From Chloroflexota bacterium (GTDB lineage: Bacteria > Chloroflexota > UBA11872 > VXOZ01): a stretch of DNA of 64,000 nucleotides. The notes under the pieces are model-generated. The model was given only the letters and a program-made list of their open reading frames with translations, did no database searches and was not told where the DNA came from. The DNA lies in NCBI GenBank assembly GCA_963663275.1, contig OY760183.1, positions 1,216,001 through 1,280,000 of the forward strand, in the 5' to 3' direction. Shown here in pieces: positions 13,904-53,309 of this stretch. A program made the position numbers and the translations under genes. Position 1 is the first letter of the stretch. Each line of letters begins with the position of its first letter.

Positions 13904-14064
13904 CTGACTGGGGTATGTAAGTGTCATTCCGAGCGCAGCGAGGAATCTAAAGATGCTGACTTTGCAGGGCTGCGCTTTAGATTCCGCGAACAGGGTTCGA
14001 CACTCCGCTGCGCTCCGTTCAGAATGACACGTGAAGTCGACTATAGAATACATACCTCTGTCAG
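13904..14064 (+). mobile_element. MITE family A, copy 1 (degenerate)
   Basis: CTGACTGGGGTA...TACCTCTGTCAG termini; flanks ACCGCATGGCC / CCCGCAGGTCC match at 8/11; internal GTCATTCCGAG hairpin. Confidence 0.8.
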
Positions 14065-14227
14065 CCCGCAGGTCCCCAGCGTGGCTGCCACGCACTTGGG
14101 GTGTTCATTCCCGCATTGCGGGCGGCGTGCGGGTATGCCATGCTAGGCGCTAGAGAGTGCGTCCGCGGCTCCCGCGGGCAGGGATGACGTGAGCGCCGAC
14201 GCCCAAGAGATTGCGAGGTGCGAGCCT

Positions 14228-15112
14228 ATGCGGAGTTTTCGTGTCACGGCGGTTTCGTTGCGCAGCCGGCCGGCGTCGCCGGAGGCAAATCTCGGCCATC
14301 ACGCGGCGTGGGTCGCGCGGGCCGCGGCGGACGAGCCGGACCTGATCTGCTTTCCCGAACTCGGCCTGACCGGCTACAGCATCACGCCGGCCATTTGGGA
14401 GGCGTCCGAGCCGGTGCCGGGGCCTTCCACCCAGGCGCTGGCGGACCTGGCGCGGGAGCACAACGTCATGCTGGCGGCGGGCATTGCCGAAAACGACCGC
14501 GACATCGTGTATAACACCTATGTCATCGTTGGGCCCGAGGGGTATATTGGCAAGTCGCGCAAGATCCACATTCCGCCGGCGGAGGTGGGCTACTGGCGCG
14601 GCGGCGGCATTCCGCCGGTGATCGACATTGGCGCGGCCAAGGTCGGAGTGAACATCTGCTTCGACAACTGGCTGCCGGAGTCGGGCCGCATGGTGGCGCT
14701 GCAAGGGGCGGAGGTCATTCTGGCGCCGTACGTGTGGTCGGTGGGCGATTGGGGCGAGCCGCCGGACCACGCCAGCCGCAACCGGGCCTGGAAAGATTAC
14801 GCCGGCCGCACTTTTCCGGCCCGCGCCATCGACAACGGCGTCTTTCTGGTTGCCGTCAACGCCTGTGGGCCGCCCCCCACCGGCGCCAGCACGCATTTCA
14901 GCAATCCCATGGTCGTGGTCTATAATCCCCTGGGGCAACTGGTGGCGGCCTCGCCGGACGACGCCGGCGACGAGGTGATGGTGACCGCCGACCTGGATAA
15001 ACAGCTTCTGGCCGAGCGGCGCTCGCAGGGCGTCTTCCACCCGCGCTTCCGACGGCCGGAGCTCTACGGCCTGCTGGCGGAAGGCGATATTGGCCCGCAA
15101 GAGCCGCGCTAG
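14228..15112 (+). CDS. Carbon-nitrogen hydrolase (nitrilase superfamily)
   Basis: Catalytic triad motifs FPEL (E), SRKIH (K), ICFD (C); C-terminal RRPELY. Confidence 0.92.
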   Translation: MRSFRVTAVSLRSRPASPEANLGHHAAWVARAAADEPDLICFPELGLTGYSITPAIWEASEPVPGPSTQALADLAREHNVMLAAGIAENDRDIVYNTYVIVGPEGYIGKSRKIHIPPAEVGYWRGGGIPPVIDIGAAKVGVNICFDNWLPESGRMVALQGAEVILAPYVWSVGDWGEPPDHASRNRAWKDYAGRTFPARAIDNGVFLVAVNACGPPPTGASTHFSNPMVVVYNPLGQLVAASPDDAGDEVMVTADLDKQLLAERRSQGVFHPRFRRPELYGLLAEGDIGPQEPR

Positions 15113-15147
15113 CGGGGGTTAATTCCGCCCGAGGCGCAAGAGGTTCA

Positions 15148-15326
15148 GGGGCGCGACACAGATTTCGCGGCAACGATGGCGGCGCAGACGGCGTTGGGGC
15201 ACGACACGGGTTTCGGGGCAACGAACGCGGCGCAGACGTCGTTGGGGCACGGGTTTCGGGGTAATGAACGCGGCAACAAAGGTGTAGGGGCACGACATGT
15301 CGTGCCCCTACACCTTTGTTGCCGCG
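15148..15326. repeat. Three ~48-bp tandem half-REP units followed by a 58-bp perfect palindrome centred on the GTAG REP
   Basis: GGGGC(A/G)CG starts at 15148, 15196, 15244 and 15287; palindrome spans 15269-15326. Confidence 0.88.
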
Positions 15327-15352
15327 AAAACAACCGGAAACGACGTCCGGGG

Positions 15353-17821
15353 TCAGGCCTGCTCCACCAGCACGCGCACGTCCAGGCGCAGCACGTCGCC
15401 GTCCCGGTCTATCACCACCGTATCGCCGGCGTGGAACTTTTCGGCCAGCAGACCTTCGGCAAGCTCATTCTCGATCAGGTTCTGGATCACGCGCCGCAGC
15501 GGCCGCGCGCCGTTATCCGGGTCGAAGCCCTGTTCCACCAGCAGTTCTTTCGCGTCGTCGGTAACGTCCAACGTAATTTCCTGTTCGGTCAGCCGGGCCT
15601 GCACCTCGGCCAGTTGGATATCGACTATGTTGATGATGTCTTCTTTGGAGAGGTGCCGGAACGTCACGACGCTATCCACGCGATTCAGGAACTCAGGGCG
15701 GAACGTCTTCTTGATTTCCGCCATCACCCGTTCCCGCATCTCTTTGTACATCTGTTCCTCGGTGCGCAGGTCGGAGGCGTCCAGCCGGAAGCCGACGGCG
15801 GCGTCGCGTTTGATCAGGTGCGCGCCCACGTTCGAGGTCATGATGAGGATCGTGTTGCGGAAGTCCACCGTGCGGCCTTTGCCGTCGGTCAGGCGTCCGT
15901 CTTCCATGATCTGCAGCAAAACGTTGAAGACGTCCGGGTGGGCTTTCTCGATTTCGTCCAGCAGCACCACCGAATAGCTGCGCCGCCGCACCGCTTCGGT
16001 GAGTTGGCCGCCTTCTTCATAGCCCACGTAGCCCGGCGGCGCGCCCACCAGGCGGGAGATGGTGTGCTTCTCCATGTACTCTGACATGTCCAGCCGCACC
16101 ATGGCGTCGCTGCTGCCGAACATGAACTCGGCTAAGGCGCGGGCCAGATACGTCTTGCCGGAGCCGGTGGGCCCGACGAAGATGAACGAGCCGATGGGGC
16201 GCTTGGGGTCTTTGAGGCCGGCGCGGGCGCGGCGCACAGCCTTGGAGACGTTGCTGATGGCCTCGTCCTGGCTCACCACCTTCTTGTGCAGGTTCTCCTC
16301 CATGTGGAGCAGCCGCGCGGATTCCTCCTGGGCGATGCGGGTCACCGGAATGCCGGTCCACATGGAGACCACGGTGGCCACGTCCTCTTTGGTGACCTCG
16401 GGCCACTTCTCTTCCTGGTTGGGCCAATCCGATTCCAGGGTTTCGATCTTCTTGCGCAATTCCGCCTCTTTTTCGCCCAGGCCCACCGCCTCGTCGTACT
16501 GGCGGCCCTCGATGGCGTCTTCCTTTTCGCGCACGATGCCGTCCAGGTCTTTCACCGCGTTGCGCAGGGCGTTGGAGGTGTTGGCCTGCTGGATGCGCAC
16601 CCGCGAGGCCGCCTCGTCGATGAGGTCGATCGCCTTGTCCGGCAGGAAGCGGTCGGTGACGTAGCGGCCGGACATTTCCGCCGCCACTTTGACGGCTTCG
16701 TCGACGATGTGCACCTTATGGTGCTCCTCGTAGGCTTCCTTGACGCCCTGGAGCACGGCAATCGTCTCTTCGATGTCCAGTTCGCGCACGTGCACGGGCT
16801 GGAAGCGGCGTTCCAGGGCGGCGTCGCGCTCGATGTACTTGCGGTATTCGTCCAGGGTGGTGGCGCCGATGCATTGCAGTTCGCCGCGGGCCAGCGCCGG
16901 TTTCAGGATATTGGCCGCGTCCACCGCGCCTTCCGCCGCGCCCGCGCCGACAAGGGTATGCAACTCGTCGATGAAGAGCATGCAATCGCCGGAGCCGCGA
17001 ATTTCCTCGAGAATCTTCTTCAGCCGTTCTTCGAATTCACCCCGGTACTTGGTGCCGGCCACCAGCGCGCCGATGTCCAGGGTAAGCAGCCTTTTGCCCA
17101 GCAGGGTTTCCGGCACGTCGCCCTCGATGACGCGCTGCGCCAGGCCCTCCACAATCGCGGTCTTGCCGACGCCGGGTTCGCCGATGAGCGCCGGGTTGTT
17201 CTTGGTGCGGCGCGAGAGGATCTGCACCACCCGTTCGATCTCCTGCTGGCGGCCGATGACGGGATCGAGCTTTTCGGCGCGGGCCGCGGCGGTGAGGTCG
17301 ATGCCCATCTGGTCGATCAAAGGAGTGCGTGAAGTGGATGACTGGCGGCCGCCGCTCTCGTGAGTCAGGCGCGAGGGTTGCTGGCTCACCGCCTGGATCA
17401 CCTTTTGCCGCACTTTTTCCAGGCTTACGCCCAGGCTCTCCAGCACGCCGGCGGCGATGCCCTCGCCTTCGCGCACCAGTCCCAGCAGCAGGTGCTCGGT
17501 GCCGATGTAGTTGTGCCCCAGGCGGCGCGCTTCTTCCGTGGCAAGCTCGATGACCTTCTTGGCGCGGGGCGTCAGGCTGATGTCGCCGACGTTCACGCGC
17601 TCGCCGCGCCCGATGATGAACTCCACCGCGCCGCGCACCTTGGTGAGGTCTACGCCCATGTCGTAGAGCACCTTGGCGGCGATGCCGTCCCCTTCGCGCA
17701 CCAGTCCCAGCAGCAGGTGCTCGGTGCCGATGTAGTTGTGGTTGAAACGGCGCGCTTCTTCGGTGGCAAGCGCGAGAACCCGCTTGGCTCGGTCCGTATA
17801 CTTATCGTACAGGGGACTCAC
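15353..17821 (-). CDS. clpC: ATP-dependent Clp protease ATP-binding subunit ClpC
   Basis: Double Clp-[12 protein letters not shown] middle domain, GPTGSGKT, and VGF ClpP-docking loop. Confidence 0.97.
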
Positions 17822-18534: not shown

Positions 18535-18610
18535 GGCACTGCTCCTGGGTTCCGTTGCCGCCCGCGGCGGCGCGTACGCAGAGCGGCCGCGCGGGCCGGC
18601 TGCCCGGCCG

Positions 18611-20360: not shown

Positions 20361-20428
20361 CCGGCATGTTCTCGTAGGAGAGCTTGGCAAGTCTCAAGCC
20401 GGCGCGCAAAAGACTCCCTCTCCCTGGG

Positions 20429-20575
20429 CTGACAGGGGTAGGAAAGTGTCATTCCGAGCGGAGCGAGGAATCTAGAAGTGATGAGCTTACAGGGCAATGC
20501 CTTAGATTCCTCTCTCCGCTGCGCTCCGCTCGGAATGACACGTGAAGTCGGATGTAGAATGCCTATCCCTGTCAG
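20429..20575 (+). mobile_element. MITE family A, copy 2, with perfect 11-bp TSD CTCTCCCTGGG
   Basis: TIR CTGACAGGGGTAGG...CCTATCCCTGTCAG; TSD at 20418-20428 and 20576-20586, inside a CCCTCTCCC/GGGAGAGGG hairpin repeat. Confidence 0.92.
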
Positions 20576-20643
20576 CTCTCCCTGGGGGAGAGGGCCGGGG
20601 TGAGGGGGGAGAGTTCACGGTTCCAACTCCATCCCACCTGTTA

Positions 20644-20840
20644 GATCCTGTTTACGATACTGCTTAGGGGAGAGTTTTCAAAGCCGATAAAGACCGTTCG
20701 TGCTGAGCACTTCGGCAAGCTCAGTACAGGCCTGTCGAAGCATGAACGCCTATCCGCCACCTTGCGGCTGTTCCGTTCACCCTTCGACGCGGCTCAGGGC
20801 GAACGTTCCTCCTGCGGACAAGACGATCGTAAATCGGTTC
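20644..20840 (+). mobile_element. MITE family B (IS5-like ends), degenerate copy
   Basis: GATCCTGTTTACGAT...GATCGTAAATCGGTTC flanked by TTA on both sides; near-identical to 62758-62953. Confidence 0.85.
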
Positions 20841-20895
20841 TTAGGCAGAGCGACTCGAAGGCCAAAAGTAGGGAGAAAGCGAAGCGGTGGCACGG

Positions 20896-21495: not shown

Positions 21496-21498
21496 GCT

Positions 21499-22287
21499 AT
21501 GCCCCGCCGCGATCCGCGCCGCGTCTGGGAACTGGCGCGCCGCTACCGGACGCTCGCCGCCCGTTTCCCGCAATTCGCCGTGGCCGAGATCGGCGCGGTG
21601 GAACGCTTCGGCCTGCGGTTCCCGCTGCTGGCGGTAGAGGCGGGAGAGGGGCCGCGCGGCGCCATCATCCTGGCCGGCACCCACGGCGACGAGATCGCCG
21701 GGCCGCTGGCGCTGCTCGCGTTCTGGGAAGACGCGGCGAACCACGCCCTGCTGGAAGGCATCCGCTTCCTCTGCCTGCCGCTCATCAATCCGGTTGGCTT
21801 CGCGCGGGGCATACGCGGCAACGGCGCGGTGGACCTCAACCGCCACTTTGGGCGGCCTACGGCCCAACCGGAAAACGAAATCGCGCTGGACTTCCTGCGC
21901 GAACGCCGGGCGGACCTGCTGGTCTCGCTGCACGAGGACGTGACGTCCGGCTGCTTCTACATGTACGAGAGCGGCGTGCGGGAGCGCGGCGTGTTTGCGC
22001 GGATCGTGGCCGACGACGCGGCGCTGCTCGACGCGCTGGAGGCGCAAGGCCATCCGGTTTGCAAGGGCGATGAGGTGGACGGCAACTACAACCGCAGCGG
22101 CCTGGTGGTGTCCAATCCCGGCTCGGTGCGCGCCAGCCGCTCCGGCGCTCTGGAAGCGGTGCTCATGCGCCTTGGGGCGATCCGGCGCGTGGTGGGCTTC
22201 GAAACCCCCGGCACGCTGCCCCTCCGCGACCGCATCCACCAACAACAGACCGCGCTCCGCCACGTGCTCGGCTCGTTCCTGGTGTAG
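21499..22287 (+). CDS. M14-family metallocarboxypeptidase / succinylglutamate desuccinylase-like
   Basis: AGTHGDE, NPVG, DLNRHF, SLHED, FETP motifs. Confidence 0.85.
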   Translation: MPRRDPRRVWELARRYRTLAARFPQFAVAEIGAVERFGLRFPLLAVEAGEGPRGAIILAGTHGDEIAGPLALLAFWEDAANHALLEGIRFLCLPLINPVGFARGIRGNGAVDLNRHFGRPTAQPENEIALDFLRERRADLLVSLHEDVTSGCFYMYESGVRERGVFARIVADDAALLDALEAQGHPVCKGDEVDGNYNRSGLVVSNPGSVRASRSGALEAVLMRLGAIRRVVGFETPGTLPLRDRIHQQQTALRHVLGSFLV

Positions 22288-22657: not shown

Positions 22658-22732
22658 TGGAGGCGACGAGCGGAATCGAACCGCTGTATAAGGGTTTTGC
22701 AGACCCTCGCCTTACCACTTGGCTACGTCGCC
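22658..22732 (-). tRNA. tRNA-Cys (GCA)
   Basis: Reverse complement GGCGACGTAGCCAAGTGGTAAGGCGAGGGTCTGCAAAACCCTTATACAGCGGTTCGATTCCGCTCGTCGCCTCCA: cloverleaf, GCA anticodon, encoded CCA. Confidence 0.97.
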
Positions 22733-27654: not shown

Positions 27655-27800
27655 CTGACAGGGGTAGAGAACCGTCATTCCGAGCGGAGCGAGGAATCCA
27701 GAACCGACGCTTTTACAGCGAACGCCTTAGATTCCTCTCTCCGCCGCGCTCCGCTCGGAATGACACGAGAAGCCGGATGTTGAACGCCTACCCCTGTCAG
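27655..27800 (+). mobile_element. MITE family A, copy 3
   Basis: TIRs intact; flanks CCTCTCCTGGG / CTTCTCCTGAG match at 9/11, inside a CCCTCTCC/GGGAGAGGG repeat. Confidence 0.88.
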
Positions 27801-28263
27801 CTTCTCCTGAGGGAGAGGGTTAGGGTGGGGGGCGCTCCGGCAGCGCAGGTTTGTAACCTGCGCCCCTCTACGGTGAATCCTATGCGTACTCGTATCCCAT
27901 GCGTGATCTTGTCTCTTGGTCCGGCGGGGGACAAGCCCCCGCGCTACGTTGACTTCTCGATTTGGTTCCCTCTCCTGAGGGAGAGGGTTAGGGTGAGGGG
28001 GCGCTCCGGTAGCGCAGGTTTGAAACCTGCGTCCCTCTACGGTGAATTCTATGCGTACTTGTATCCCATGCGTGATCTTGTCTCTTGGTCCGGCGGGGGA
28101 CAAGCTCCCGCGCTACGTTGACTTCTCGATTTGGTTGCCTCTCCTGTGGGAGAGGGTTAGGGTGAGGGGGCATTCCGGTAGCGTAGGTTTGTAACCTGCG
28201 TCCGCTGCCGTCATACCGGCACACGTGGCGGACCGGCAGCGGGGGACAAGCCCCCGCGCTACG
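27801..28263. repeat. Tandem ~169-bp mosaic units, each built from three different REP families
   Basis: Units start at ~27639 (interrupted by MITE A), 27964 and 28133. Confidence 0.9.
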
Positions 28264-31953: not shown

Positions 31954-32079
31954 CTCCCTCTCCTGGGGGAGAGGGCCGGGGTGAGGGGAAAACCTCGTTG
32001 GTTCCGAACCGTTTCGCAAGACTTGGGTATGAGTCGCCACATAATCTCCCCTCACCCTAACCCTCTCCCCAGGGAGAGG
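31954..32079. repeat. Inverted pair of CCCTCACCC..CCCTCTCCC-N-GGGAGAGGG repeats
   Basis: Copies at 31954-31988 and 32048-32079; the second is the target of MITE A. Confidence 0.85.
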
Positions 32080-32225
32080 CTGACAGGGGTAGGCACGTGT
32101 CATTCCGAGCGGAGCGCAGCGGAGAGAGGAATCTAAGGCTTTCGCTGCAAAAACGTCGGTTCTAGATTCCTCGCTCCGCTCGGAATGACACGTGAAGTCG
32201 GATGTACAATGCCTACCCCTGTCAG
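32080..32225 (+). mobile_element. MITE family A, copy 4, with perfect 11-bp TSD CCAGGGAGAGG and inverted core
   Basis: TSD at 32069-32079 and 32226-32236; TIR CTGACAGGGGTAGGCA...TGCCTACCCCTGTCAG. Confidence 0.93.
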
Positions 32226-32520
32226 CCAGGGAGAGGGGATAAGACGCGCGCTGGGCTTCGTCTGCTCCCCCTACAATTGCGCAAAGGACTTCCCAGTGGG
32301 AGGGAACTTTACGCCTCTCAGCGGGGTTGCGCAAAGGTCTCCTGAGCGCCACCGCCCCCAGGGATACGGCCAAACCGAGAGAGCGCTCGCTCGCGGCGTG
32401 CGGCGCTGCCGTCTTGCGTAAGGGGCGCAACCCGTCATCGCCACGGTTCATGTTTGCGCCGGCCGCCCGGCAGTAGCGCGGCACTTTTTCAATCCAGAAT
32501 TACGCGGCCTTGTCTGGGCT

Positions 32521-33160: not shown

Positions 33161-33285
33161 CCGTCATTACCGCGAAAGTGCGCAGCGCGCAATCCGTCAT
33201 TCCGGCGGAAGCCGGAATCCATCTCTGCGCATGCGCCCTGGATTCCGGCGAAAGCTGGAATGACAGAAACGAACGGGAACGACAC
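33161..33285. repeat. CGTC-type REP doublet (33195-33264) with degenerate copies of each terminus outside it
   Basis: CCGTCATTACCGCGAAAG 33 bp upstream; GGAACGACA 19 bp downstream of GGAATGACA. Confidence 0.8.
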
Positions 33286-33986: not shown

Positions 33987-35054
33987 ATGATACGCAAGTT
34001 TTCCGCACGAAACTTCCGCTGTTTCCGAGATTTCGAGATTGAGCCGCTCGCGCGCGTCAACCTCATTGTGGGTGAAAGCAACGTTGGCAAGACGGCTTTG
34101 CTGGAAGGAGTCTTCATTCTTTGCGGGCCGAATAGTCCGGACTTTTCGTTCACAGTAAACTTCGTACGACGTGCTATTGACAGCGATGAGAGCTCATGGA
34201 AAGCGCTAGAGTGGCTCTTCCATGAGACGCAAACCGCTGCCCCTGCTGAACTCACGAGTGTCGATGTCCAGCAGGAAAAGCGCAGGTTACGCATTTGTCT
34301 GGATGAGCCCGCCGAACGTGCATTGGCTCCTGCTGGATCAGGCGGCAACTATCAAAGTCAGGCGAAGGGTAGCGCAGTATTGAAGAGGTTCAAGGAATTG
34401 GCTCTGACGTATACGGACCATGAGGGTAGGGAATTTCTTTCCCGCGCGGTCAAGACACCTGAAGGCATAAAAGCATCCTCGGCCAAAGTCGATGCTCGGC
34501 CCCCCGTTTGGTACGTACATACGCAAGGGCCACTCTCGGATGATCATGCCCGGTTCTTCAGTGACTTGGCAGAAGCAGGCAGGGAAAACGAACTCCTGTC
34601 GCCGCTCAAGGTGATTGATCCGCGCTTCAAGCGAATTGCACTTCTATATCCGACGGATGGGCCGATGCTATACGCCGACATCGGACTTGAAATCCTCGTG
34701 CCTTTGCCATACATGGGTAGCGGTGTCACAAATCTGCTCTCCTGGCTATTGGCAATTAAGGCGGCTGAGAACGGCACGGTGCTCATCGATGAATTTGAAA
34801 ACGGCTTGCACTACTCGGCCCTGGTTGACGTCTGGAAAGCAGTTTACGCGGCGGCACGGGATTCCAATGTGCAAGTTTTTGCCACGACGCATAGCTGGGA
34901 GTGCGTGATAGCGGCGCAGAACGCTTTTGCGGAGTGTGGTGATGATGAGTTCCGCCTGCACCGCCTGGAGCGCAGGGATGGTGAGGTGGTTGCGATTACG
35001 TATGACAGAGAGCAATTGGACGCTGCGATGAAATTCAATTTCGAGGTGCGTTAG
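33987..35054 (+). CDS. ABC-type AAA ATPase (AAA_15/AAA_21-like)
   Basis: NFRCF, Walker A GESNVGKT, signature MGSG, Walker B LIDEFENGLH, TTHS. Confidence 0.9.
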   Translation: MIRKFSARNFRCFRDFEIEPLARVNLIVGESNVGKTALLEGVFILCGPNSPDFSFTVNFVRRAIDSDESSWKALEWLFHETQTAAPAELTSVDVQQEKRRLRICLDEPAERALAPAGSGGNYQSQAKGSAVLKRFKELALTYTDHEGREFLSRAVKTPEGIKASSAKVDARPPVWYVHTQGPLSDDHARFFSDLAEAGRENELLSPLKVIDPRFKRIALLYPTDGPMLYADIGLEILVPLPYMGSGVTNLLSWLLAIKAAENGTVLIDEFENGLHYSALVDVWKAVYAAARDSNVQVFATTHSWECVIAAQNAFAECGDDEFRLHRLERRDGEVVAITYDREQLDAAMKFNFEVR

Positions 35055-39524: not shown

Positions 39525-39835
39525 GCAGCCGGAGTCTCATACCGCAGTCAGCGCAGCCGCCGTGTTATACGGATGACAGCGCAGCCGGTATGTCATTGCG
39601 AAACGAAACGCAGCCGCTGTGTCATTCCGAACGCAGCGCAGCGAAGTGAGGAATCTAGGAGCCTCAGCGTCGGAGACTTTTCCCGCGCGGGACACGAGAT
39701 TCCTCGCTCCGCTCGGAATGACAGTTAGGACAAATATACAAGTGACAGTCAGGCCCAACTTGCAGGTGACAGTATGGACCAGAGTGCAAAGGACAGTAAG
39801 GTCCAATCTACAGGTGACGTGTAGAAGCCGACCCT
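39525..39835. repeat. GTCATTCCGA-type REP hairpin (39621-39722) flanked by 28-29-bp tandem units on the left and 24-bp tandem units on the right
   Basis: GCAGCCG at 39525, 39553, 39581 and 39610; TGACAGT-like at 39718, 39742, 39766, 39790 and 39814. Confidence 0.85.
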
Positions 39836-41410: not shown

Positions 41411-44400
41411 ATGGGCAGACTTGTAACCATAGCTATACTTGGCTTAGTGGTGTCGCTAAGTGCAGCTGGACTGGTGTCTTGCGGTCCGCCGCCACGATCC
41501 ATAGATCATGTGCACGGTCCCAATACGCCGGTCAGGCCGACGCCTTCTCCCATCCCTGATCTGTCTGCAAACCTCCTATGGCACTACAAACTTAGTATTC
41601 AGATATTTGCACGGTTATATACAGCGCCGGCCGTAGCTGATGGCGTGGCCTATGTTGGATCGAATGACGGTCAAGTCTTTGCGCTTGATGCCGATACTGG
41701 TGAAATGCGTTGGCGGTCCCTCGTTAGCGATGGGCCGCTCAGTTCCCCGGTGGTGGCAAACGGCTTGGTCTTCATTTTGTCGTCTGGCAATCGTCTGCAA
41801 GCGCTCGACGCCAAGACCGGCAAATTGCTTTGGCGCCAGTGGTTCCATAAGGGAGTACATTCCACGCCGGCGGTGGCTGACGGGGTAGTCTATATTGGCT
41901 CTCGTGAACACTGGGTGTACTCGCTTGATGCTGCTACCGGTGAACTGCGCTGGGCGCATGAAACGGGCGGAACTGTGAATTCCACCCCGGCACTGCATGA
42001 CGGCGTTGTATATATCGGCTCAGATGACCACCGCATCTATGCGCTCGACACTGTTACCGGCGAAGAGCGGTGGCACTTCCTGACTCGGGGTGTTGTGGAT
42101 TCCTCTCCAGCGGTGGCAGACGGCAGGGTGTTCGCCAGTTCAAGAGACGGCTATGTGTATGCACTTGCCGCCGCGACCGGAGAAGTCCTTTGGCAATTTG
42201 AGACCAAGGACGAAGCATATTCGTCCCCAGTCGTAGGGACTGGAGCGGTTTTCGTTGGTTCTGGTGATGGGTTTCTGTATGCCTTGAGTATAGATTCCGG
42301 CGAACCTCTCTGGCGCTTCAAGACAGAAGGTATTAACTACACTGTAGCGGTAGCTGAAGGAGTGGTTTATGCTGGCTCACCTGGAAGATTCTACGCACTG
42401 GATGCCATCAGTGGCGACGTACGCTGGAACATAGAGGTCGATGCATCGCCTTTCGTCGCCCCGGTAGTAGAGGACGGCAAAGTCTATTTCGAAACTTCCG
42501 ACGGTCATGTTAACGCCCTGGATGCCGCCACTGGCGAACCGCTCTGGCGCTTTCTCTTGGGGGGTGTCATGCCGTGTTTGCCGAAAGAGGACGACAGCGT
42601 GCTCTTCATCAAGTCGGGTGGCAATCACATTTACGCGCTGGCTGCCGAGACCGGAGGATTGTATTGGCTCTTTCGTACCGGCGGTGAAGTGTGGACCAAC
42701 TCACAAGCGGTTAACGGCGCGTATTATGCCACTTCCCAATTCGGTTATGTGTACGCATTTGATGCAAGAACCGGCGAGTTGCGCTGGCGCTTTCGAACTG
42801 GTGGTGAAATAAGGGCATCGCCGGCAGTAGCGGGCGACACAGTCTATGCCACGTCTCTGGATGGCTTCGTCTACGCGCTCGCTGTCGCTAACGGCGAACT
42901 CCTGTGGAAGTCGCAGACTGGAGGGGAAGTTTGGTCTACTCCGGTAGTCGGGGATGGCGTAGTCTCCGTTGTCTCTCACGATGGCTACGCGTACGGTCTT
43001 GATGCCGAAAGCGGAGAACAGCGCTGGCGTATAGAGAGCGGGTACTTCGTCGAGGCTTCTCCAACGATGGTTGGCGGTGTGGTCTACGTGGGTTCGGATG
43101 ATGGACATCTTTATGCACTGGACGCCGCCAGCGGCGAACTGTTGTGGCGCTATCAGACCGCTGGGGAAGCGCAGGGATCTCCTCTCATGACTTGGGGCGT
43201 CGTGTATGTAGGCGCCGACGACGGCTACTTGTATGCCTTGGATGCCGAAGACGGTAGGCTGCTTTGGCGCTCCCAGATCGGCGACTTTGTCTTCCATGCT
43301 CCGGTCAGGATTGGCGATGCGATTTTTGCGGCATCGGAAGCCGGCTATGTCTACGTCCTGGTTGCCGAGAGTGGTGAGCTGGTGGGGAGATTTAGCATCG
43401 ATGGTGCGCCGCAGGGCTCGCCAATCAAAGGAGACGGGAAGATCTACGTAAGTTCGCAGAACGGCGCCGTCTACGCGCTTGCCAGCTCAGGCGCAGCATC
43501 TCGGTCAGTGAGAGATGAGCCCGTACAGACAGTACTAAACAAACCTTGCAGCGGAGTATTGCGCTGGCGTGCCCAATTTGACGGTTCTGTCAACTCCCCT
43601 CCGGCAGTGACTGACGATGTCGTCTACATTTTGTCTACAAATGGCGTTCATGCCTTTGATGTTGGTTCTGGCGACCCGCGGTGGAACTACGAGTTTGATG
43701 ATTCCGTGCGGTCTTCTCTAGCATTTGCCGACGGAGTAACCTATGTCGGCTCGCAATCTGGCCAGGTCTACGCTCTTTCCGTCGAGACTGGTAAGCTTCT
43801 TTGGGAGGCGTCGATTTTAGGGAGCACGTATTACTTTTCGCCGGCCGTTGCCGATGGAGTGGTCTACATCAGCACAGATGGCGGTTACTTCTACGCACTT
43901 GACGCCAGAACTGGCGGGCAACTCTGGCGCAGTAAGGTTTCGCAAGACGTGCGCTATTCCCCGGTCGTGGCTGGCGACACAGTTTATTATGTCTCCTATA
44001 GTCATGTTCTCGCGCTGTCTACCAGCACCGGTGGCGTGCGTTGGCTAAAGCAAACTAACACGGCATTGGGGTCGTCGCCTGTGGTATCCCATGGTGTTGT
44101 CTACGTTGGCGCGCGGGACGGCCGTGTCTTGGCGCTGGACGCCAGCACTGGAGAACTGCGCTCGAGTGTAGAGACAGACGATTCTCCGCAGCCACGTCAG
44201 GGCCTGTCAGATGGAACAGCCTTAGACTACGCACATTATGGCGGATTCTTCTCTCTGGATAACGTCGCCGAGGGGGTCTTGTATACCAGCTCATCGGATG
44301 GTTATGTTCGCGCGTTGGATGCCGCCACCGGCGAACTGCTTTGGCGCCGTTTCATGTTCGCCAGGGTTTCCGCTACCCCAACCGTTGCTGGCGGCGCCAT

Positions 44401-44593
44401 CTACGTCAATACTCTGAATGGTCACATCTACGCGCTGGATACTGCAACCGGTGATCTACTTTGGCGTTACAGGACACAACGCGGGGCAGTTTATTCCCCA
44501 ACGCTAGCCGGTGGAGTGGTCTACGCTTCCACATGGGGTGATTACAGATATGGTGACTACATCTACTCGCTGAAGGCCCGCCCTAGTGAGTGA
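41411..44593 (+). CDS. Lipoprotein with about 24 PQQ-like (BamB-like) beta-propeller repeats
   Basis: Lipobox LVSC; repeated SPAV.DG.VY.GS.DG..YALDA.TGE..W; visibly lower GC. Confidence 0.9.
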   Translation: MGRLVTIAILGLVVSLSAAGLVSCGPPPRSIDHVHGPNTPVRPTPSPIPDLSANLLWHYKLSIQIFARLYTAPAVADGVAYVGSNDGQVFALDADTGEMRWRSLVSDGPLSSPVVANGLVFILSSGNRLQALDAKTGKLLWRQWFHKGVHSTPAVADGVVYIGSREHWVYSLDAATGELRWAHETGGTVNSTPALHDGVVYIGSDDHRIYALDTVTGEERWHFLTRGVVDSSPAVADGRVFASSRDGYVYALAAATGEVLWQFETKDEAYSSPVVGTGAVFVGSGDGFLYALSIDSGEPLWRFKTEGINYTVAVAEGVVYAGSPGRFYALDAISGDVRWNIEVDASPFVAPVVEDGKVYFETSDGHVNALDAATGEPLWRFLLGGVMPCLPKEDDSVLFIKSGGNHIYALAAETGGLYWLFRTGGEVWTNSQAVNGAYYATSQFGYVYAFDARTGELRWRFRTGGEIRASPAVAGDTVYATSLDGFVYALAVANGELLWKSQTGGEVWSTPVVGDGVVSVVSHDGYAYGLDAESGEQRWRIESGYFVEASPTMVGGVVYVGSDDGHLYALDAASGELLWRYQTAGEAQGSPLMTWGVVYVGADDGYLYALDAEDGRLLWRSQIGDFVFHAPVRIGDAIFAASEAGYVYVLVAESGELVGRFSIDGAPQGSPIKGDGKIYVSSQNGAVYALASSGAASRSVRDEPVQTVLNKPCSGVLRWRAQFDGSVNSPPAVTDDVVYILSTNGVHAFDVGSGDPRWNYEFDDSVRSSLAFADGVTYVGSQSGQVYALSVETGKLLWEASILGSTYYFSPAVADGVVYISTDGGYFYALDARTGGQLWRSKVSQDVRYSPVVAGDTVYYVSYSHVLALSTSTGGVRWLKQTNTALGSSPVVSHGVVYVGARDGRVLALDASTGELRSSVETDDSPQPRQGLSDGTALDYAHYGGFFSLDNVAEGVLYTSSSDGYVRALDAATGELLWRRFMFARVSATPTVAGGAIYVNTLNGHIYALDTATGDLLWRYRTQRGAVYSPTLAGGVVYASTWGDYRYGDYIYSLKARPSE

Positions 44594-44986: not shown

Positions 44987-45075
44987 AGCTCACTGTACCT
45001 ATGGCTCAGTCCAAGAGTTGCGGACAGCGTCGTGCGGAACGCATTAGCAGAGCAGAATCGGAACAGACCTGCAAG

Positions 45076-46098: not shown

Positions 46099-46139
46099 GG
46101 CCTTCTTTCCCTTTCGACTTCACTCGTTCTACGCTTACA

Positions 46140-46253
46140 CCCTCACCCCGGCCCTCTCCCTCAGGGAGAGGGGGCTTTTGCCGCCTGCCGGCGCGGGCCC
46201 CATCATCATACGACTTCACCCTCACCCCGGCCCTCTCCCTCAGGGAGAGGGGG
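46140..46253. repeat. Direct pair of CCCTCACCCCGGCCCTCTCCCTCAGGGAGAGGG repeats
   Basis: Identical copies at 46140 and 46219 (79-bp period). Confidence 0.9.
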
Positions 46254-46287
46254 TCTTGCCGTCTGACGCATTGATCTGGAAACGGCG

Positions 46288-49348: not shown

Positions 49349-49450
49349 CCGCGGTCGCCACTCCAATGTGAATTTGCTATTGCGCCCCATTATTCACGTT
49401 ACGGGCAGTGGCGTCAAACCCGCGCCGGGCGCGGAGGGGTACGGGCGCCA

Positions 49451-49588
49451 GGCAAACGGGGGCAGAGAGGCGAGACGTGCGCGGATGCGGCACGACGCGC
49501 AAACGCGGCAGGGGCGCGAGACGCGCGTGCGCGCGTCCCGGATACGCAAACGTGGTAGGGGCACGACATGTCGTGCCCCTACCACGTT
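49451..49588. repeat. Two degenerate 47-bp units followed by a GTAG REP palindrome extended to 40 bp
   Basis: (C/G)GCAAACG at 49451, 49498 and 49545; palindrome 49549-49588. Confidence 0.8.
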
Positions 49589-49657
49589 GCGGTAATCGCA
49601 ATTGCTGCGCGTCTTACGCCACTGCGTGCGCCATTGCGCGCGCCGTTGCGGACGTCG

Positions 49658-51634
49658 TTACTTCACCTGCACCGCCGTCTGCATTCCGCCCACGCCTTCC
49701 AATCCGCCGAGGACCTCGGTGTACGGGAACTCGACGCTGGCCGGCCGGTAGGAATCCAGCTTCGGAATAGTGAAGAGCGTCACGTAGGGCAGATCTTCGG
49801 CAAGGAAGTTCTGCAATTGGAACACCTTGTCGCGCGCGCCCTCGATGGTCGTCTCGGAGAGCAGGCTGAACGAGATGTCGTCGAACTCCGGATTGGCGTA
49901 GCCGCCCCAGTTATAGCCGCCCTCGTTCTCCGGCGCGTGGCGACTGTTGAAGAAGACCTCCAGGTAGTCCGGGAAGAGGCTCAGGCTCCAACCCAGGATC
50001 CACATGTCCAGATCTTCTTGCACGGTATCGCTGAACAGCACGCCCACGATGACGTTGAAGCCGGTGAGGTTGGCCCGCACCGGAATGCCGACGTCGTTCA
50101 ACCAGCGCTCGATCCAGATGGCGAACGTGGCGCGCAGCGGGTCGTAGCCCGCGCTCGGCGCGATGATCGTCAGCGCCGGCACGTCCGAGCCGTCGGGCAG
50201 CTTGAGGCCCTTGCCGGCCTTGGCGACGAAGTTGCCGTCCTCGCTGATCTCCGGCTCTTCCTCATAGGTGAAGCCGGCGCTCTTGAGCAATTCCACGGCC
50301 TGCTGCAGCCGCTCGCCCCGGCTCAGGTTCGCGCCGAGGCTGGGCGTGTCGGCGTTGAACCACGCCGCGTTGCCGGACGGCACCATGGAGTACGCCGGAA
50401 TGGCTGCGCCTTGCAGCACGGTCTGGGTGACGAACTCCTTGTCGATCATGATCGCCACCGCTTGCCGGAACTCGCGGATATTCATAGGCTCCTTGCGCAC
50501 GTTGAAGCCCAGGTAGAACATGCCGTTGTCCAGGTTGGTGACGATTTCCAGGTCGCCCGCCGCCTGGATGCGCTCCCGAAAGCCTTTCTCCAGGCCCAAG
50601 GGGTTGAAGACGTAGTCGATGTCGCCCTTGGTCAGGGCCAGGATGGCGGCGTCCTGGTTGCCGTAGATGCTGAAGAGCGCGGAATCCACGTGGGGGCCGA
50701 CCGTATACTCCAGTTCCTTGTCACCGCCGGGCTCGCCGAAGTAGGTGGCGGTGTAGCCCAGCCGCTCGTTCTGTTCCTGCAACGTGCCGCTGGCGTACCG
50801 CGTGATGACGGAGCCGGTGGCGTAGTAGTTGTCGGCCCGCTCGTTCTCGAGGAACGCGCCCGCCTCCCACTTAGCGAACACGAAGCCGCCCAGGGTGGGA
50901 TCGTTCTCGGGCACGTGCGCCATCAGCGCCTCGATCTGCGCCTCGGCGTCACCGGCCTTCTTGGCCTCTTCAACCACGGGGGCCCAGTAGTGCTCCGGCA
51001 GGATCGGCATGAAGGCCAGGCCGAATTGCCAGACGCTCAGGCCGGGCGTCTGCGGGTTGCCCTCGTCGTCGTTGGCCTTGAAGAAGATCTTGATGCGATG
51101 GCTGTCGATGGCCTCGATGCGGTCGAGGAAGGCGGAGTCCACCGCGGCGCCAAAGTTGCCGCTGATGCCCATTTCGAGCACGGTGTGCGCGGTGAAGATC
51201 ACGTCATCCGCCGTGAGTTCCTCGCCGTCGCTCCACATGATGCCCGCTCTGATTGGCACCTCGGTCGTCCAGTACTCGGTACCGTCAACCGTTTCCTTCG
51301 TCAAGTCCGTGGGGAAGTCGGCCGCCAGACTGGGAATCCACTCGAACGTCTGGTCGGAGTAGCCGTAGAGCCCCCCGGTATAGCCGCTCAGGACGTACTG
51401 CGTCCACACGGAGCCGCCGGCGCCGCCGTAGTAATTCCAGAAGTTGCGCGTAATCGGCTCCTCGAAGATGCCCATGCGGTAGACGGACGGACCGGCCGGC
51501 TCCGCCGGGGCTTCTACCTCTTCCTCCACCGGGGCCTCGGGCGCGGCCGGCGGCTCCTGGGCGCACGACGCCAGCGCCGCCGCGGCCAAGATAGCGACCA
51601 GGAAGACGGCCGCTCTCATCCACAATGACTTCAT
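49658..51634 (-). CDS. Peptide ABC transporter substrate-binding lipoprotein (family 5)
   Basis: Lipobox LASC; WSDGEELTADDVIFT signature; FRQAVA..IDKE. Confidence 0.93.
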   Translation of the reverse strand: MKSLWMRAAVFLVAILAAAALASCAQEPPAAPEAPVEEEVEAPAEPAGPSVYRMGIFEEPITRNFWNYYGGAGGSVWTQYVLSGYTGGLYGYSDQTFEWIPSLAADFPTDLTKETVDGTEYWTTEVPIRAGIMWSDGEELTADDVIFTAHTVLEMGISGNFGAAVDSAFLDRIEAIDSHRIKIFFKANDDEGNPQTPGLSVWQFGLAFMPILPEHYWAPVVEEAKKAGDAEAQIEALMAHVPENDPTLGGFVFAKWEAGAFLENERADNYYATGSVITRYASGTLQEQNERLGYTATYFGEPGGDKELEYTVGPHVDSALFSIYGNQDAAILALTKGDIDYVFNPLGLEKGFRERIQAAGDLEIVTNLDNGMFYLGFNVRKEPMNIREFRQAVAIMIDKEFVTQTVLQGAAIPAYSMVPSGNAAWFNADTPSLGANLSRGERLQQAVELLKSAGFTYEEEPEISEDGNFVAKAGKGLKLPDGSDVPALTIIAPSAGYDPLRATFAIWIERWLNDVGIPVRANLTGFNVIVGVLFSDTVQEDLDMWILGWSLSLFPDYLEVFFNSRHAPENEGGYNWGGYANPEFDDISFSLLSETTIEGARDKVFQLQNFLAEDLPYVTLFTIPKLDSYRPASVEFPYTEVLGGLEGVGGMQTAVQVK

Positions 51635-51771
51635 CACCGTATCTCCTCCTTCTCTACCACTATTCTGCCGGCAGCGCCCGTGCCGCCCCGTGCCGGGCGG
51701 CAAACGCCTTGCTTGGGAACTACCGCCGCAACGCGTACCACGCTCTAAGTGTACACGCTCCGCCACACCCG

Positions 51772-53064
51772 TCAAGTCTGTGGTTGATGTCGCGCCCGCT
51801 CCCAGGCGCGGAGTTCGTCCTGATTGCTCCGGAGTTTGTCGAGGACGTCCAGGATGCGGTCCATGTCGCGCCGCGGCCCCAGGAAGGTGGCGTGCGGCAG
51901 GCAGAGGGCCTCTGCCTTGTAGATGCGCTCCGCTTCCGGGCAGTAGACCGCGCGGTAGTCGATCTCCTTGCCGTAGAAAGAACAGGTGAACGGATGCCCG
52001 GTGCGGCCAAAGTTCATCTCCTGGAAGAGCGGATTGCGGTAGACCGGGTGGGTATGGCCGGTGTGGACGCGCAACCCCTCGGCGTTCAGCGCCTGCATGA
52101 CGGTGTCCCTCCCGATGCCGCCAAACGCCGCGCTATGGTACTTGACGTGCCAGAAGTAGAAACCCCAGCGGGTCACGCGGGGATCGCGGTAGATGGGCGT
52201 GAAACCATCGATTTGTCCAAGTTGTTCGGATAGGTACGTCACGTTCCGTTCGCGGACGGCGGTCTGCGCCTCCAGGCGGCCGAGTTGCGCGTTGCCCACT
52301 GCGCCTTGCCACTCGGTCATGCGCAGGTTGGTGCTCGGAATGTGGTGCTCGTAGAACGGGCGGCCCGGGAAGCGCCCGATGTTGTGGAAGGAGGAGGCGC
52401 GCTGCGCGACTTCCTCACGATTGGTGAGCACCATGCCGCCCTCGCCGGTGGTCAGGGTCTTCCCCATCTGGAAGCTGAAACCGCCGCAGTCGCCCAGCGC
52501 GCCCGTACCGACGCCCTTCCACTGGGAGCCATGTGAGTGGGCGCAGTCTGAGACGATGGCGATACCGTGTTTGGCGGCGATGGTTTGGAGGGCGTCCACG
52601 TCGCACGGCATGCCGCCGTAGTCAACCGGCATCATGGCGCGGGTCTTGGGCGTAATCGCGGCGGCGACAGCCTGGGGGTCGATGGTGTAGTCGCGCGGGT
52701 CGCAATCCACGAAGATGGGAATGGCGTTGGCTTGCAGCACGGCGGAGGCGGTAGCCACGAAGGTCACGGCCGGGACGATCACCTCGTCTCCCGCTTCCAC
52801 GCCCACGGCCCGCAGCGCCGCCTCCAGCGCCACGGTGCCATTGGCAACGGCAATGCCGTACTGGGCGTCCTGGAAGTGCGCGAAATCGCGCTCGAAGCGT
52901 CCCACCTGGGATTCGTCCTGGTCGGCGTGCCCGCCCCGCCACCAGATGCCGCTCTCCAGCACGCCTTGGAGCAAGCGTTGTTCCTCCGCGCCAAAGACCG
53001 GCCAGGACGTGCCCAGCGGCTGTGCGAGCGCGGGCCCGCCGCCGGTAAGGGCCAGGTTTCCCAT
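51772..53064 (-). CDS. DegT/DnrJ/EryC1/StrS family PLP aminotransferase
   Basis: NGT.AL, GDEVIVP..TF.AT, DCAHSHG, FSFQMGKTLTTGEGG. Confidence 0.93.
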   Translation of the reverse strand: MGNLALTGGGPALAQPLGTSWPVFGAEEQRLLQGVLESGIWWRGGHADQDESQVGRFERDFAHFQDAQYGIAVANGTVALEAALRAVGVEAGDEVIVPAVTFVATASAVLQANAIPIFVDCDPRDYTIDPQAVAAAITPKTRAMMPVDYGGMPCDVDALQTIAAKHGIAIVSDCAHSHGSQWKGVGTGALGDCGGFSFQMGKTLTTGEGGMVLTNREEVAQRASSFHNIGRFPGRPFYEHHIPSTNLRMTEWQGAVGNAQLGRLEAQTAVRERNVTYLSEQLGQIDGFTPIYRDPRVTRWGFYFWHVKYHSAAFGGIGRDTVMQALNAEGLRVHTGHTHPVYRNPLFQEMNFGRTGHPFTCSFYGKEIDYRAVYCPEAERIYKAEALCLPHATFLGPRRDMDRILDVLDKLRSNQDELRAWERARHQPQT

Positions 53065-53163
53065 GCGATTGTGCTCCTTGCTGCCGTCGTCACCCGCCGC
53101 GCCCACGCTCTCCCGTGGAGAGCTCGGAAATTCCCCTCACCCCGCCCCTCTCCCCAGCGAGAG

Positions 53164-53309
53164 TTGACAGGGGTATGTAAATGTCATTCCGAGCGGAGCG
53201 AGGAATCTAGGGAAGACATTCTTGCAGGGCAAGCCTTAGATTCCTCTCTCCGCTGCGCTCCGTTCGGAATGACACGTGAAGTCGATTATAGCTTACAGAC
53301 CCCTGTCAG
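53164..53309 (+). mobile_element. MITE family A, copy 5
   Basis: TTGACAGGGGTA...ACCCCTGTCAG; flanks CCAGCGAGAG / CCAGGGAGAG, inside a CCCTCACCC..CCCTCTCCC repeat. Confidence 0.88.

Follow-up and report, generated by a model that had tools for sequence, protein, structure and literature searches.

A miniature transposable element of a Chloroflexota genome makes 11-bp target duplications and prefers palindromic C-run/G-run sites in hairpin repeats

The 64,000-nucleotide stretch of Chloroflexota DNA analyzed here (the window) contains five copies of a miniature inverted-repeat transposable element, which we call MITE-1, and the genome as a whole contains 121 end-paired copies of 144 to 237 bp with inverted ends of 12 to 16 nt. 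MITE-1 very probably descends from IS4-family DDE/YREK transposons of a clade with the end core CAGGGGTAGG, whose enzymes would have moved it in trans. Its targeting is a motif preference (a C-run, 5 nt, and a G-run) rather than strict site-specificity. The copies and empty sites in the window are listed below, where T1 is the CCCTCTCCC-loop-GGGAGAGGG hairpin repeat.

13904 to 14064, plus strand: MITE-1 copy 1, 161 bp; 11-bp duplication decayed (3 mismatches); no recognizable hairpin target
20418 to 20428, no strand: left target duplication of copy 2, perfect 11 bp CTCTCCCTGGG; right copy at 20576-20586
20429 to 20575, plus strand: MITE-1 copy 2, 147 bp; in a T1 CCCTCTCCC/GGGAGAGGG hairpin, with the GGGTGAGGG tail to the right
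27655 to 27800, plus strand: MITE-1 copy 3, 146 bp; target is a T1 hairpin; duplication of 11 bp, 2 mismatches
32069 to 32079, no strand: left target duplication of copy 4, perfect 11 bp CCAGGGAGAGG; right copy at 32226-32236
32080 to 32225, plus strand (outer ends): MITE-1 copy 4, 146 bp; interior hairpin reads as the exact reverse complement of that in standard copies
46130 to 46253, no strand: empty target sites, namely two T1 hairpins (46130-46174 and 46209-46253), each with a CCCTCACCC tail
53164 to 53309, plus strand: MITE-1 copy 5, 146 bp; target is a T1 hairpin; duplication of 10 bp, 1 mismatch

An earlier note on this DNA had described five copies of about 146 bp. Their coordinates and inverted ends are borne out, except that copy 1 is 161 bp long because of a 14-nt insert in one hairpin arm. 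The end motif, with up to 1 mismatch allowed, has 10 matches in the window compared with 0.10 expected, and none of 100 shuffled window sequences reached that number. As the note had also reported, the 11-bp duplications are perfect in two copies (20429 and 32080) and decayed in three, with lengths of 10 to 11 bp in the window, and four of the five copies lie within a CCCTCTCCC-N-GGGAGAGGG hairpin, the exception being copy 1. The T1 hairpin at copy 4, with its CCCTCACCC tail, begins near 32049. None of the IS copies that we mapped across the genome falls inside the window, and an Rfam search of positions 13000 to 54000 at the gathering threshold found nothing but one tRNA. All five copies are indeed in the plus orientation, but this does not extend to the genome, in which 57 oriented copies are plus and 59 are minus, so the agreement in the window is attributed to chance (2 x 1/32). 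A link between orientation and replication, which the note had proposed to check, was likewise not found among all oriented copies; GC skew is weak, and there is no bias (Fisher p 0.84).

Genome-wide, perfect duplications of 10, 11, and 12 bp flank 10, 31, and 7 copies, respectively (48 of 121), and with one mismatch allowed these counts become 14, 51, and 7 (72 of 121). As controls, a perfect repeat of at least 10 bp was found at 5 of 5,000 random positions, and swapping flanks between copies gave ~2.4 per 121. In a second genome, G011, an 11-bp duplication with no more than 1 mismatch is present in 13 of 20 sampled copies. The remaining 49 of the 121 copies are without a 10- to 12-bp duplication within one mismatch. 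Some of these have flanks that belong to two different hairpin families, which we read as later recombination. Two 41-bp elements at genome positions 44527 and 44701 were considered as an ancestral empty shell and are read instead as deletion derivatives at a short repeat.

Autonomous relatives that share the end core and 11-bp duplications support the earlier proposal that MITE-1 is the non-autonomous counterpart of an IS4-family transposon of the DDE type. These ISs are 1.27 to 1.37 kb long, occur in the sister genus, in other phyla, and on plasmids, and encode ~400-amino-acid (aa) DDE/YREK transposases in one frame of 387 to 420 aa per element. The IS of the sister-genus genome G038 is 1,313 bp with an 11-bp duplication and a 420-aa open reading frame (ORF), and its inverted ends have 2 differences from the MITE-1 end in the first 14 positions. 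The ORF matches PF01609 at 36.1 bits (cutoff, 23) and NF033591, "IS4 family transposase," with an E value of 1.4e-30 and 106.6 bits, which is below the curated cutoff of 152. Residues D134, D197, and E299 and the motif Y292-x2-R-x3-E-x6-K306 (Y292, R295, E299, and K306) are invariant in 11 homologs. PMC2266710 gives D(60-110)D(100-150)E spacing and Y-(2)-R-(3)-E-(6)-K as hallmarks of the IS4 family, and the partner IS has this DDE spacing, the YREK signature, a single ORF, and a duplication of about one helical turn.

All 19 full-length relatives end in the CT..GGGTAGG type, and 11 of the 19 have a perfect 11-bp duplication. Two plasmid copies (Methylomagnum and Nostoc), which RefSeq names only "transposase," have the same ends and perfect 11-bp duplications, for a total of 13 of 21. 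A 639-bp internal-deletion derivative also exists, and G014, a genome of the same genus, contains a broken homolog bounded by a variant of the MITE-1 end. Past approximately position 14 to 16, the MITE-1 ends diverge from those of these ISs, which are T-rich in their subterminal part, and the transposases found may not recognize MITE-1. In the sister genus, long end-pairs of 3.1 to 3.5 kb proved to be the ends of two separate MITEs with no shared duplication. The clade is abundantly represented in metagenomes, by at least 6,878 protein clusters at an E value of 1e-20, and its profile matched nothing among solved structures at an E value of 0.01.

The proposed mechanism, taken from what holds for the family, is a cut-and-paste one, in which a transposase dimer would bind the two 14- to 19-nt inverted ends and excise the element. 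Joining to the target would proceed via cuts staggered by 11 bp, or sometimes by 10 or 12 bp, and repair of the staggered cuts would produce the flanking duplication. The target would be chosen by a palindromic motif of a C-run, ~5 nt, and a G-run, found here mainly in T1 and in a second hairpin, T2. The outcome is a repeat nested in a MITE that lies in another MITE, and the MITE-1 interior is itself a separate long hairpin repeat.

T2 is the subterminal hairpin of an IS30-family IS (IS A) and of its 142-bp MITE. A third family, T3, is a G-first palindrome (GTAGCGC-GGGGG..CCCCC) and is the GTAG-type REP that flanks the RAYT gene. We reserved the term REP for short GC-rich palindromes that carry a GTAG-type tetranucleotide at the 5' side and occur in inverted orientation around a RAYT gene. 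The genome has one RAYT gene (NF047646 as its best NCBIfam match, with 60 bits on a 103-aa piece against a cutoff of 80, and Pfam Y1_Tnp above its cutoff), which is flanked by T3 repeats and not by T1, T2, MITE-1, or the GTCATTCC hairpin that forms the interior of MITE-1. Neither T1 nor this cargo hairpin has the features of a REP as defined here. The label "REP" that the note had given to the target therefore belongs to T3, which MITE-1 never enters centrally, and T1 and the cargo hairpin are REP-like repeats rather than RAYT-associated REPs.

The 121 copies are distributed with 40 in T1, 36 in T2, 10 beside T3, and 34 elsewhere or in degenerate palindromes. The description of the insertions as site-specific does not hold, since the T1 CCCTCTCCC hairpin takes only 40 of the 121. 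In the target logo, which was made from MITE-1 copies only, a C-run opens the duplicated segment and a G-run closes it with ~5 nt between them, and T-Y-C and G-R-A usually adjoin the motif on its two sides. Genome-wide, 25 of 27 tailed T1 cases have the arm distal to the CCCTCACCC tail duplicated, as the note had claimed for the window. With respect to the target, MITE-1 has no preferred orientation (12:14 and 14:15). The autonomous relatives are without the C-run/G-run target pattern.

We infer that sequence rather than DNA structure is the target signal, but a rival reading, to which we assign a low probability, is that the transposase reads the extruded hairpin or cruciform of REP-like repeats, which would serve as structural landing pads. 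At least 77 of the 121 insertions are in recognizable hairpins of two unrelated families, with many others in small palindromes, and in 29 of 29 cases T2 insertions are centered on the hairpin, within 1 bp of its tip. Plain CCC-N5-GGG sites are occupied 17 times in T2 and 3 times elsewhere, compared with 79 and 1,135 unoccupied sites, respectively. However, T3, the commonest hairpin of like geometry (409 strict or 725 loose copies), was entered centrally in none of the 10 nearby insertions, which instead have offsets of 7 to 11 bp with one arm as a half-site. T1 insertions are 1 to 3.5 bp off-center in 25 of 27 cases, which a sequence half-site fits better than does tip symmetry. For the half-extended motif, the difference in occupancy is modest (15 of 149 in T2 versus 4 of 115 elsewhere). 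The full extended motif is confined to T2 hairpins (59 empty and 13 filled), and sequence and hairpin are therefore confounded there.

No cognate transposase was detected in this genome, either by a genome search at an E value of 0.001 or by tblastn with 9 homologs (best E value, 0.06), and none turned up in 15 of 16 other genomes of the genus. The search for a full-length IS with the MITE-1 ends, which the note had suggested, yielded ISs with the same end core in relatives and found none here. None of 38 unpaired end-like 16-mers (with no more than 2 mismatches) bounds a transposase; nearly all are one-ended or degraded MITE-1 copies, with a few chance matches. The resident ISs (IS30-family IS A, IS481-family IS B, IS4-family IS C, and a single IS5-like gene) were rejected as the parent, since their ends are unrelated. 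Seven 146-mers are identical, and 19 of the 45 copies of exactly 146 bp have no more than 3 mismatches from the commonest sequence. Because the transposase is missing here and 7 copies are identical, we consider the family to be an orphan that moved recently, and the enzyme would either have been lost recently or have come from an element outside this assembly. Mobilization in trans is unproven, because the cognate transposase was not found in this genome.

Cross-mobilization by the resident IS C (4 copies with a 377-aa transposase, also found in a hairpin repeat and flanked by a long duplication) would explain the recent activity without an absent enzyme, and IS C is the only multicopy IS4-family element found in the genome (NF033592, 156.8 bits; cutoff, 115). 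It inserts at the center of the T3 hairpin, and its duplication can be read as 9 or 13 bp. We nevertheless regard this explanation as very improbable. IS C has AATG-type ends (IS4 subgroup) with no similarity to the MITE-1 ends, its protein has no significant similarity to the clade with MITE-1-like ends (BLASTP E value, 0.22), and its target, the center of a G-first palindrome, is precisely what MITE-1 avoids.

A search for empty sites, as suggested in the note, found them. The IS30-family IS has 9 paralogs, in which the same end hairpin is filled in 3 and empty in 6. The 142-bp IS30-derived MITE has 53 copies without MITE-1, while 22 of 22 copies of 280 to 345 bp hold exactly one. The spacer orthologous to that of copy 20429 contains the hairpin without the MITE in G012 and neither of them in G011 and G006. 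Landing in another hairpin repeat is preferential, with empty alleles present, and the hairpin is not always coinherited with the element. In favor of a composite repeat (half hairpin, element, and half hairpin) that spreads as a block via RAYT or recombination, with palindrome arms posing as duplications, are the palindromic targets, which alone make flanks resemble each other, the RAYT gene, and the G011 and G006 spacers, but this reading is hardly credible given that the duplications are direct rather than inverted and include clearly non-palindromic 11-mers, that the element has exact boundaries in at least 3 unrelated flank families and in non-repeat DNA, that there are hundreds of empty hairpins as well as IS and MITE paralogs filled or empty at one precise point, that G012 has the hairpin alone, and that RAYT is flanked by T3.

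MITE-1 has terminal inverted repeats around a short non-coding core, direct duplications of fixed length, empty and filled sites that differ by precisely the element and one duplication, and autonomous ISs whose ends match and whose duplications are equally long. Bacterial MITEs such as Correia, RUP, and MITEAba12 are small, with terminal inverted repeats, a target duplication, no transposase, and stem-loop potential (PMC3184786). MITE-1 resembles them in its small size, inverted ends, duplication, lack of a transposase, and long stem-loop potential, and it differs in being an orphan in its genome, in having a cargo repeat that is also free-living, and in having an end pair that carries different repeat modules in the sister genus.

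The observed targets are consistent with a palindromic motif like the one listed for IS231A, which has an 11-bp duplication and the target GGGNNNNNCCC (PMC2577343, Table 1). The IS231 subgroup has 10- to 12-bp duplications and sizes of 1.45 to 5.4 kb (PMC2266710, Table 1). Common to both systems are an IS4-family DDE/YREK transposase, duplications of 11 bp, and a palindromic target motif of G/C-runs. However, the MITE-1 motif has the opposite polarity (C-run first), the ends of the clade begin with CT and those of IS231 with CAT, the clade ISs are 1.27 to 1.37 kb, and the hosts of the clade are Chloroflexota, cyanobacterial and methanotroph plasmids, and various metagenome-assembled genomes, compared with Bacillus for IS231. 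IS231 also has non-autonomous derivatives (MIC231).

The likeness to IS50-type ends that the note had pointed out is real insofar as CT termini and size are common to the clade and to the IS10 and IS50 subgroups, which have CT (or CW) termini, lengths of ~1.2 to 1.55 kb, and 8- to 9-bp duplications (PMC2266710, Table 1). In contrast, the duplication of the clade is 11 bp (perfect in 13 of 21), and its best NCBIfam model, NF033591, scores below the cutoff. The REP-targeting ISs IS1397, IS621, IS1594, and ISPpu9 land in extragenic palindromic repeats (PMC3184786; PMC12288879). These belong to the IS3 and IS110 families, with other chemistry and no 11-bp duplication, whereas the mover here is an IS4-clade MITE that avoids the center of the RAYT-linked REP and has approximately one-third of its insertions in another MITE or IS.

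The ingredients are known, since IS insertion into REPs is already in print (PMC3184786), and MITE-1 adds a well-documented case to a kind of element already known. A limited literature search on MITEs in relation to REPs and target sites and to IS4 in Chloroflexi found no account of MITE-1; the IS clade may already be listed in ISfinder or in the additional files of PMC2266710. MITE-1 provides a countable natural data set for IS4-type target choice (121 insertions and hundreds of empty sites), and the three hairpin families, with matched geometry and differing polarity, bear on whether sequence or DNA structure is read. It also defines an under-annotated IS4 clade (CT ends and an 11-bp duplication) that sources name "transposase" or "hypothetical," it flags an orphan MITE burst, and it illustrates the stepwise nesting by which intergenic repeat arrays of Chloroflexota arise, without overturning current understanding.

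The interior of MITE-1 is, as the note had stated, a GTCATTCC...GGAATGAC hairpin that also exists free, in the window at the following positions:

33163 to 33264, no strand: free GTCATTCC...GGAATGAC hairpin; others at 5113-5182, 6269-6436, 14104-14188, and 57715-57784
39621 to 39722, no strand: free GTCATTCC...GGAATGAC long hairpin repeat; MITE ends absent

There are at least 40 free hairpins of the same type genome-wide without a nearby MITE end, and the repeat also occurs in every other genome of the genus (16 of 16). The cargo hairpin of MITE-1 is an independent repeat. In the sister genus, the MITE ends enclose mosaics that combine a GTAG-type REP with a T1-like module and the GTCATTCC module, and the same end pair in this genus has the GTCATTCC hairpin as cargo. 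It is possible, and we propose this only tentatively, that MITEs of the IS4 clade collect and shuffle hairpin repeats and that the burst seen here was due to a transiently delivered enzyme. Repeats, IS ends, and MITEs would become stacked into one another because the transposase would aim at palindromes of a C-run and a G-run, and a recent burst without a resident transposase would point to an enzyme delivered, for example, by a plasmid like those that carry the relatives. If this is true, repeat landscapes would be remodeled by transposases that leave no gene behind. Among 116 oriented copies, the interior is flipped in 6 (copy 32080 and 5 others), and both arms are long in 2 more; flipped interiors were considered as a sign of independent cargo insertion, but they are most simply accounted for by inversion between the hairpin's own arms.

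When one mismatch is tolerated, the window contains 10 occurrences of the 12-nt end motif of MITE-1, a ~146-bp nonautonomous element with inverted ends, compared with 0.10 in the shuffled window; the 10 occurrences form five inward-facing pairs. These are the five copies, with the ends that the earlier note described:

13904-14064: MITE-1 copy, 161 bp, end-motif pair
20429-20575: MITE-1 copy, 147 bp, end-motif pair
27655-27800, 32080-32225, and 53164-53309: MITE-1 copies, 146 bp each, end-motif pairs

On reading the five sites, two have a perfect 11-bp direct duplication and the other three have imperfect ones (two of 11 bp, with 2 and 3 mismatches, and one of 10 bp, with 1 mismatch), in agreement with the two perfect and three decayed duplications claimed previously. 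Four of the five copies lie within the T1 hairpin (CCCTCTCCC-loop-GGGAGAGGG). The interior hairpin of the element (the cargo) had been said to occur free as well, and it is present without a MITE at 39621-39722.

A single 3.53-Mb contig (64% G+C) contains the window, at positions 1216001 to 1280000. Pairing of end motifs (≤2 mismatches each) within 300 bp yields 121 distinct MITE-1 copies, and BLAST with two copies as queries gives 128 to 134 full-length matches. Perfect flank repeats reach a maximum length of 10 bp in 10 of the 121 copies, 11 bp in 31, and 12 bp in 7; with one mismatch allowed, these numbers are 14, 51, and 7. As controls, a perfect repeat of ≥10 bp is found at 5 of 5,000 random positions, and exchanging flanks among MITE-1 copies gives ~2.4 per 121. 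The 10- to 12-bp duplication is missing, at ≤1 mismatch, from 49 of the 121 copies, some of which have left and right flanks from different hairpin families, a pattern that points to recombination between copies and thereby to rearrangements. Copies with T2, a second target hairpin, on one side and T1 on the other are seen at genome positions 938160-938331 and 441859-442004. Among the 45 copies exactly 146 bp long, 7 are identical, and 19 differ from that shared sequence by no more than 3 mismatches. Two 41-bp remnants with 10-bp duplications (genome positions 44527 and 44701) have lost the whole hairpin, apparently by deletion at a short TGAC repeat.

MITE-1 consists, in order, of a 14- to 19-nt end, the long hairpin (GTCATTCCGAGC ... 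GCTCGGAATGAC), a spacer, and the second end; in 103 of the 121 copies, the spacer leaves the hairpin at distances of 19 and 36 nt from the two ends. Variants of ~160 and ~172 bp result from 12- to 14-nt inserts in one or both hairpin arms. In 6 of 116 oriented copies, 32080 among them, the interior exactly matches the reverse complement of the standard one, and the outer parts are unflipped; two further copies have both hairpin arms of the long form. The simplest reading of the flipped interiors would be inversion between the hairpin's own arms. The cargo hairpin is an independent repeat. Beyond the paired MITEs there are 159 GTCATTCC...GGAATGAC pairs genome-wide, 73 of which have the same arm type as the MITE-1 cargo, and 40 of these 73 lack any vestige of a MITE end within 45 nt. 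One MITE-1 copy used as a DNA query has matches in each of the genus's 16 other genomes, most of which match only positions 20 to 111, which is the hairpin. Across the genus, only G000 (108 + 107 hits) and G011 (29 + 30) have many occurrences of the end motif, which is sparse in G009, G008, G010, G014, and G016 and at or near the control level in the rest.

Landing classes were assigned from reconstructed empty sites:

T1, CCCTCTCCC-loop-GGGAGAGGG hairpin: 40/121 MITE-1 copies
T2, CCTTCCCC-loop-GGGGAAGG hairpin: 36/121
T1 and T2, scored as both: 1/121
T3, beside the GGGGGCTTGTCCCCC hairpin: 10/121
Unclassified, many of them degenerate T1/T2 or other small palindromes: 34/121

T2 is no REP; it is the subterminal hairpin of an IS30-family IS (1.2 kb; 9 copies; NF033563, 237 bits) and of a derived 142-bp MITE (ends GGAGACCTTTGCATAAC; 3-bp duplication in 36 of 53 copies). 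All 53 of the ~142-bp copies of this MITE are without MITE-1, all 22 of the 280- to 345-bp copies hold exactly one, and MITE-1 occupies the same point in 3 of the 9 full ISs. The IS30-type elements and an IS481-family IS are themselves inside T1 hairpins, which gives three to four levels of nesting. The 142-bp MITE is a second such family in the genome, and its subterminal hairpin is among the chief targets of MITE-1. Outside the window, the 142-bp MITE is seen in T1 hairpins at genome positions 21769-21910, 170778-170919, and ~50 others, with nested examples at 74992-75290. Empty sites, which the earlier note proposed to look for, were found in the IS30-family paralogs, in the 142-bp MITE, and at the locus of copy 20429. 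The gene pair around this copy is found in 16 of 16 relatives; the orthologous spacer is a few to ~22 bp with neither hairpin nor MITE in G011 and G006, and in G012 it contains the T1 hairpin in the same orientation with the MITE absent.

A target logo built from 51 sites with 11-bp duplications has T, Y, C ahead of the duplication, C-C-C opening and G-G/A-G closing it, and then G, R, A. Insertions in T2 are within 1 bp of the hairpin center in 29 of 29 tailed cases. In T1 they are shifted off the CCCTCACCC tail side in 25 of 27, which bears out the statement that the duplicated arm is distal to the tail and fits a better half-site on the side away from it. MITE-1 shows no orientation preference with respect to the target (12:14 and 14:15). 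A plain CCC-N5-GGG is insufficient as a target: occupied sites number 17 in T2 versus 3 elsewhere, and unoccupied sites number 79 in T2 versus 1,135 elsewhere. The full extended motif is confined to T2, where 59 sites are empty and 13 are filled, so that sequence and hairpin are confounded there. T3 is a hairpin of similar size with a G-first palindrome (409 strict or 725 loose copies). None of the 10 insertions near T3 is central; all 10 are offset by 7 to 11 bp, and one T3 arm serves as a C-run/G-run half-site. Because this G-first hairpin is never entered centrally and its arm is used as a half-site, the target signal is probably sequence polarity rather than generic hairpin structure.

By the usual criteria, T3 is the only genuine REP here. 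It has a GTAG-type prefix and flanks, in inverted orientation, the single RAYT-like gene, so T3 (409 to 725 copies) is the genuine REP family of the genome. This tyrosine transposase gene is at genome positions 382948-383438 (flanks 382860-383870, L095), with GTAGCGC-GGGGG..CCCCC repeats upstream and four inverted copies downstream. A resident IS4-family element, IS C (377-aa transposase, AATG-type ends), lies centrally in T3 REPs at 381613-382874 and at three more loci; owing to overlap between its ends and the T3 palindrome, the length of its duplication can be read as either 9 or 13 bp. Insertion of ISs into REPs is well documented (IS1397, IS621, IS1594, and others; PMC3184786).

No element with MITE-1 ends and a transposase was found in this genome. 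The resident IS30, IS481, IS4 (IS C), and IS5-like elements were rejected as parents, since their ends differ from those of MITE-1. In the sister genus g5, the end motif is abundant in 9 of 9 genomes and bounds MITEs with other interiors. Screening of DDE_Tnp_1 loci in g5 identified a candidate partner IS, a full-length transposase-bearing element of the kind that the earlier note suggested searching for. This 1,313-bp element in G038 encodes a 420-aa ORF, is flanked by an 11-bp duplication, and has inverted ends that match those of MITE-1. The protein scores above the cutoff for PF01609 and below the curated cutoff for NF033591, "IS4 family transposase" (E = 1.4e-30). In an alignment of 11 homologs, D134, D197, E299, and Y-x2-R-x3-E-x6-K are invariant; these residues agree with the IS4-family hallmarks and spacings given in PMC2266710. 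The clade transposase, used as a query, has no match in this genome, and 15 of the other 16 genomes in the genus are likewise without one; tblastn of nine homologs against this genome has a best E value of 0.06, and the IS C protein is unrelated at the BLASTP level (E = 0.22). The remaining genome, G014 (69% complete), has a frameshifted copy broken by a contig end and another insertion, one terminus of which is a variant of the MITE-1 end. Thus, the young, identical MITE-1 copies lack a resident enzyme, which may have been lost recently or may be supplied by DNA outside this assembly.

A scan that took one genome from each species yielded 27 loci, 19 of them full-length elements of 1,272 to 1,373 bp; CT..GGGTAGG-type ends are present on all 19, and the 11-bp duplication is perfect in 11. 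Relatives at 42 to 51% identity are carried by plasmids of Methylomagnum, Nostoc, and Stanieria, and the two plasmid copies that were read have the same ends, perfect 11-bp duplications, and only the annotation "transposase." The protein collection contains at least 6,878 clusters at E = 1e-20, none bearing an IS name. A 639-bp internal-deletion derivative illustrates the usual route from IS to MITE. IS4-family duplications are about one helical turn (PMC2266710), and Table 1 of PMC2577343 lists IS231A with a duplication of 11 bp and with the target GGGNNNNNCCC, the mirror image of the MITE-1 target rule. The combination of CT ends and an 11-bp duplication is absent from Table 1 of PMC2266710, and the clade may already be named. 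The new features are this IS4 clade, the MITE-1 family with its orphan burst, how deeply the elements are nested, and a cargo that changes from one genus to the other. In g5, the clade apparently targets another repeated motif. At g5 loci L019 to L025, L062, and L064, same-end MITEs and ISs repeatedly adjoin CCCCCTATGGTCCC or its complement, and their interiors combine, as mosaics, a GTAG-type REP with a GTCATTCC module and a T1-like module.

The window also contains other repeats. An interspersed repeat of ~190 to 205 bp (89 to 92% identity between copies), with matches also in relatives of the genus, adjoins copy 20429:

Window 20660-20846 and 62773-62959: ~190- to 205-bp repeat
Genome 34808-35012 and 885255-885442: ~190- to 205-bp repeat

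Directly downstream of copy 27655, a 169-bp unit is tandemly duplicated at 95% identity (27828-28165). Rfam at the gathering threshold finds nothing in window positions 13000 to 54000 besides a tRNA gene on the minus strand (22661-22732). At 12239-13684, a 93-nt segment that ends TGCTGGGG occurs eleven times, mostly at 114-bp spacing and with 60 to 74% identity, and resembles a protein-coding repeat; another set of repeats is at 41663-44439.
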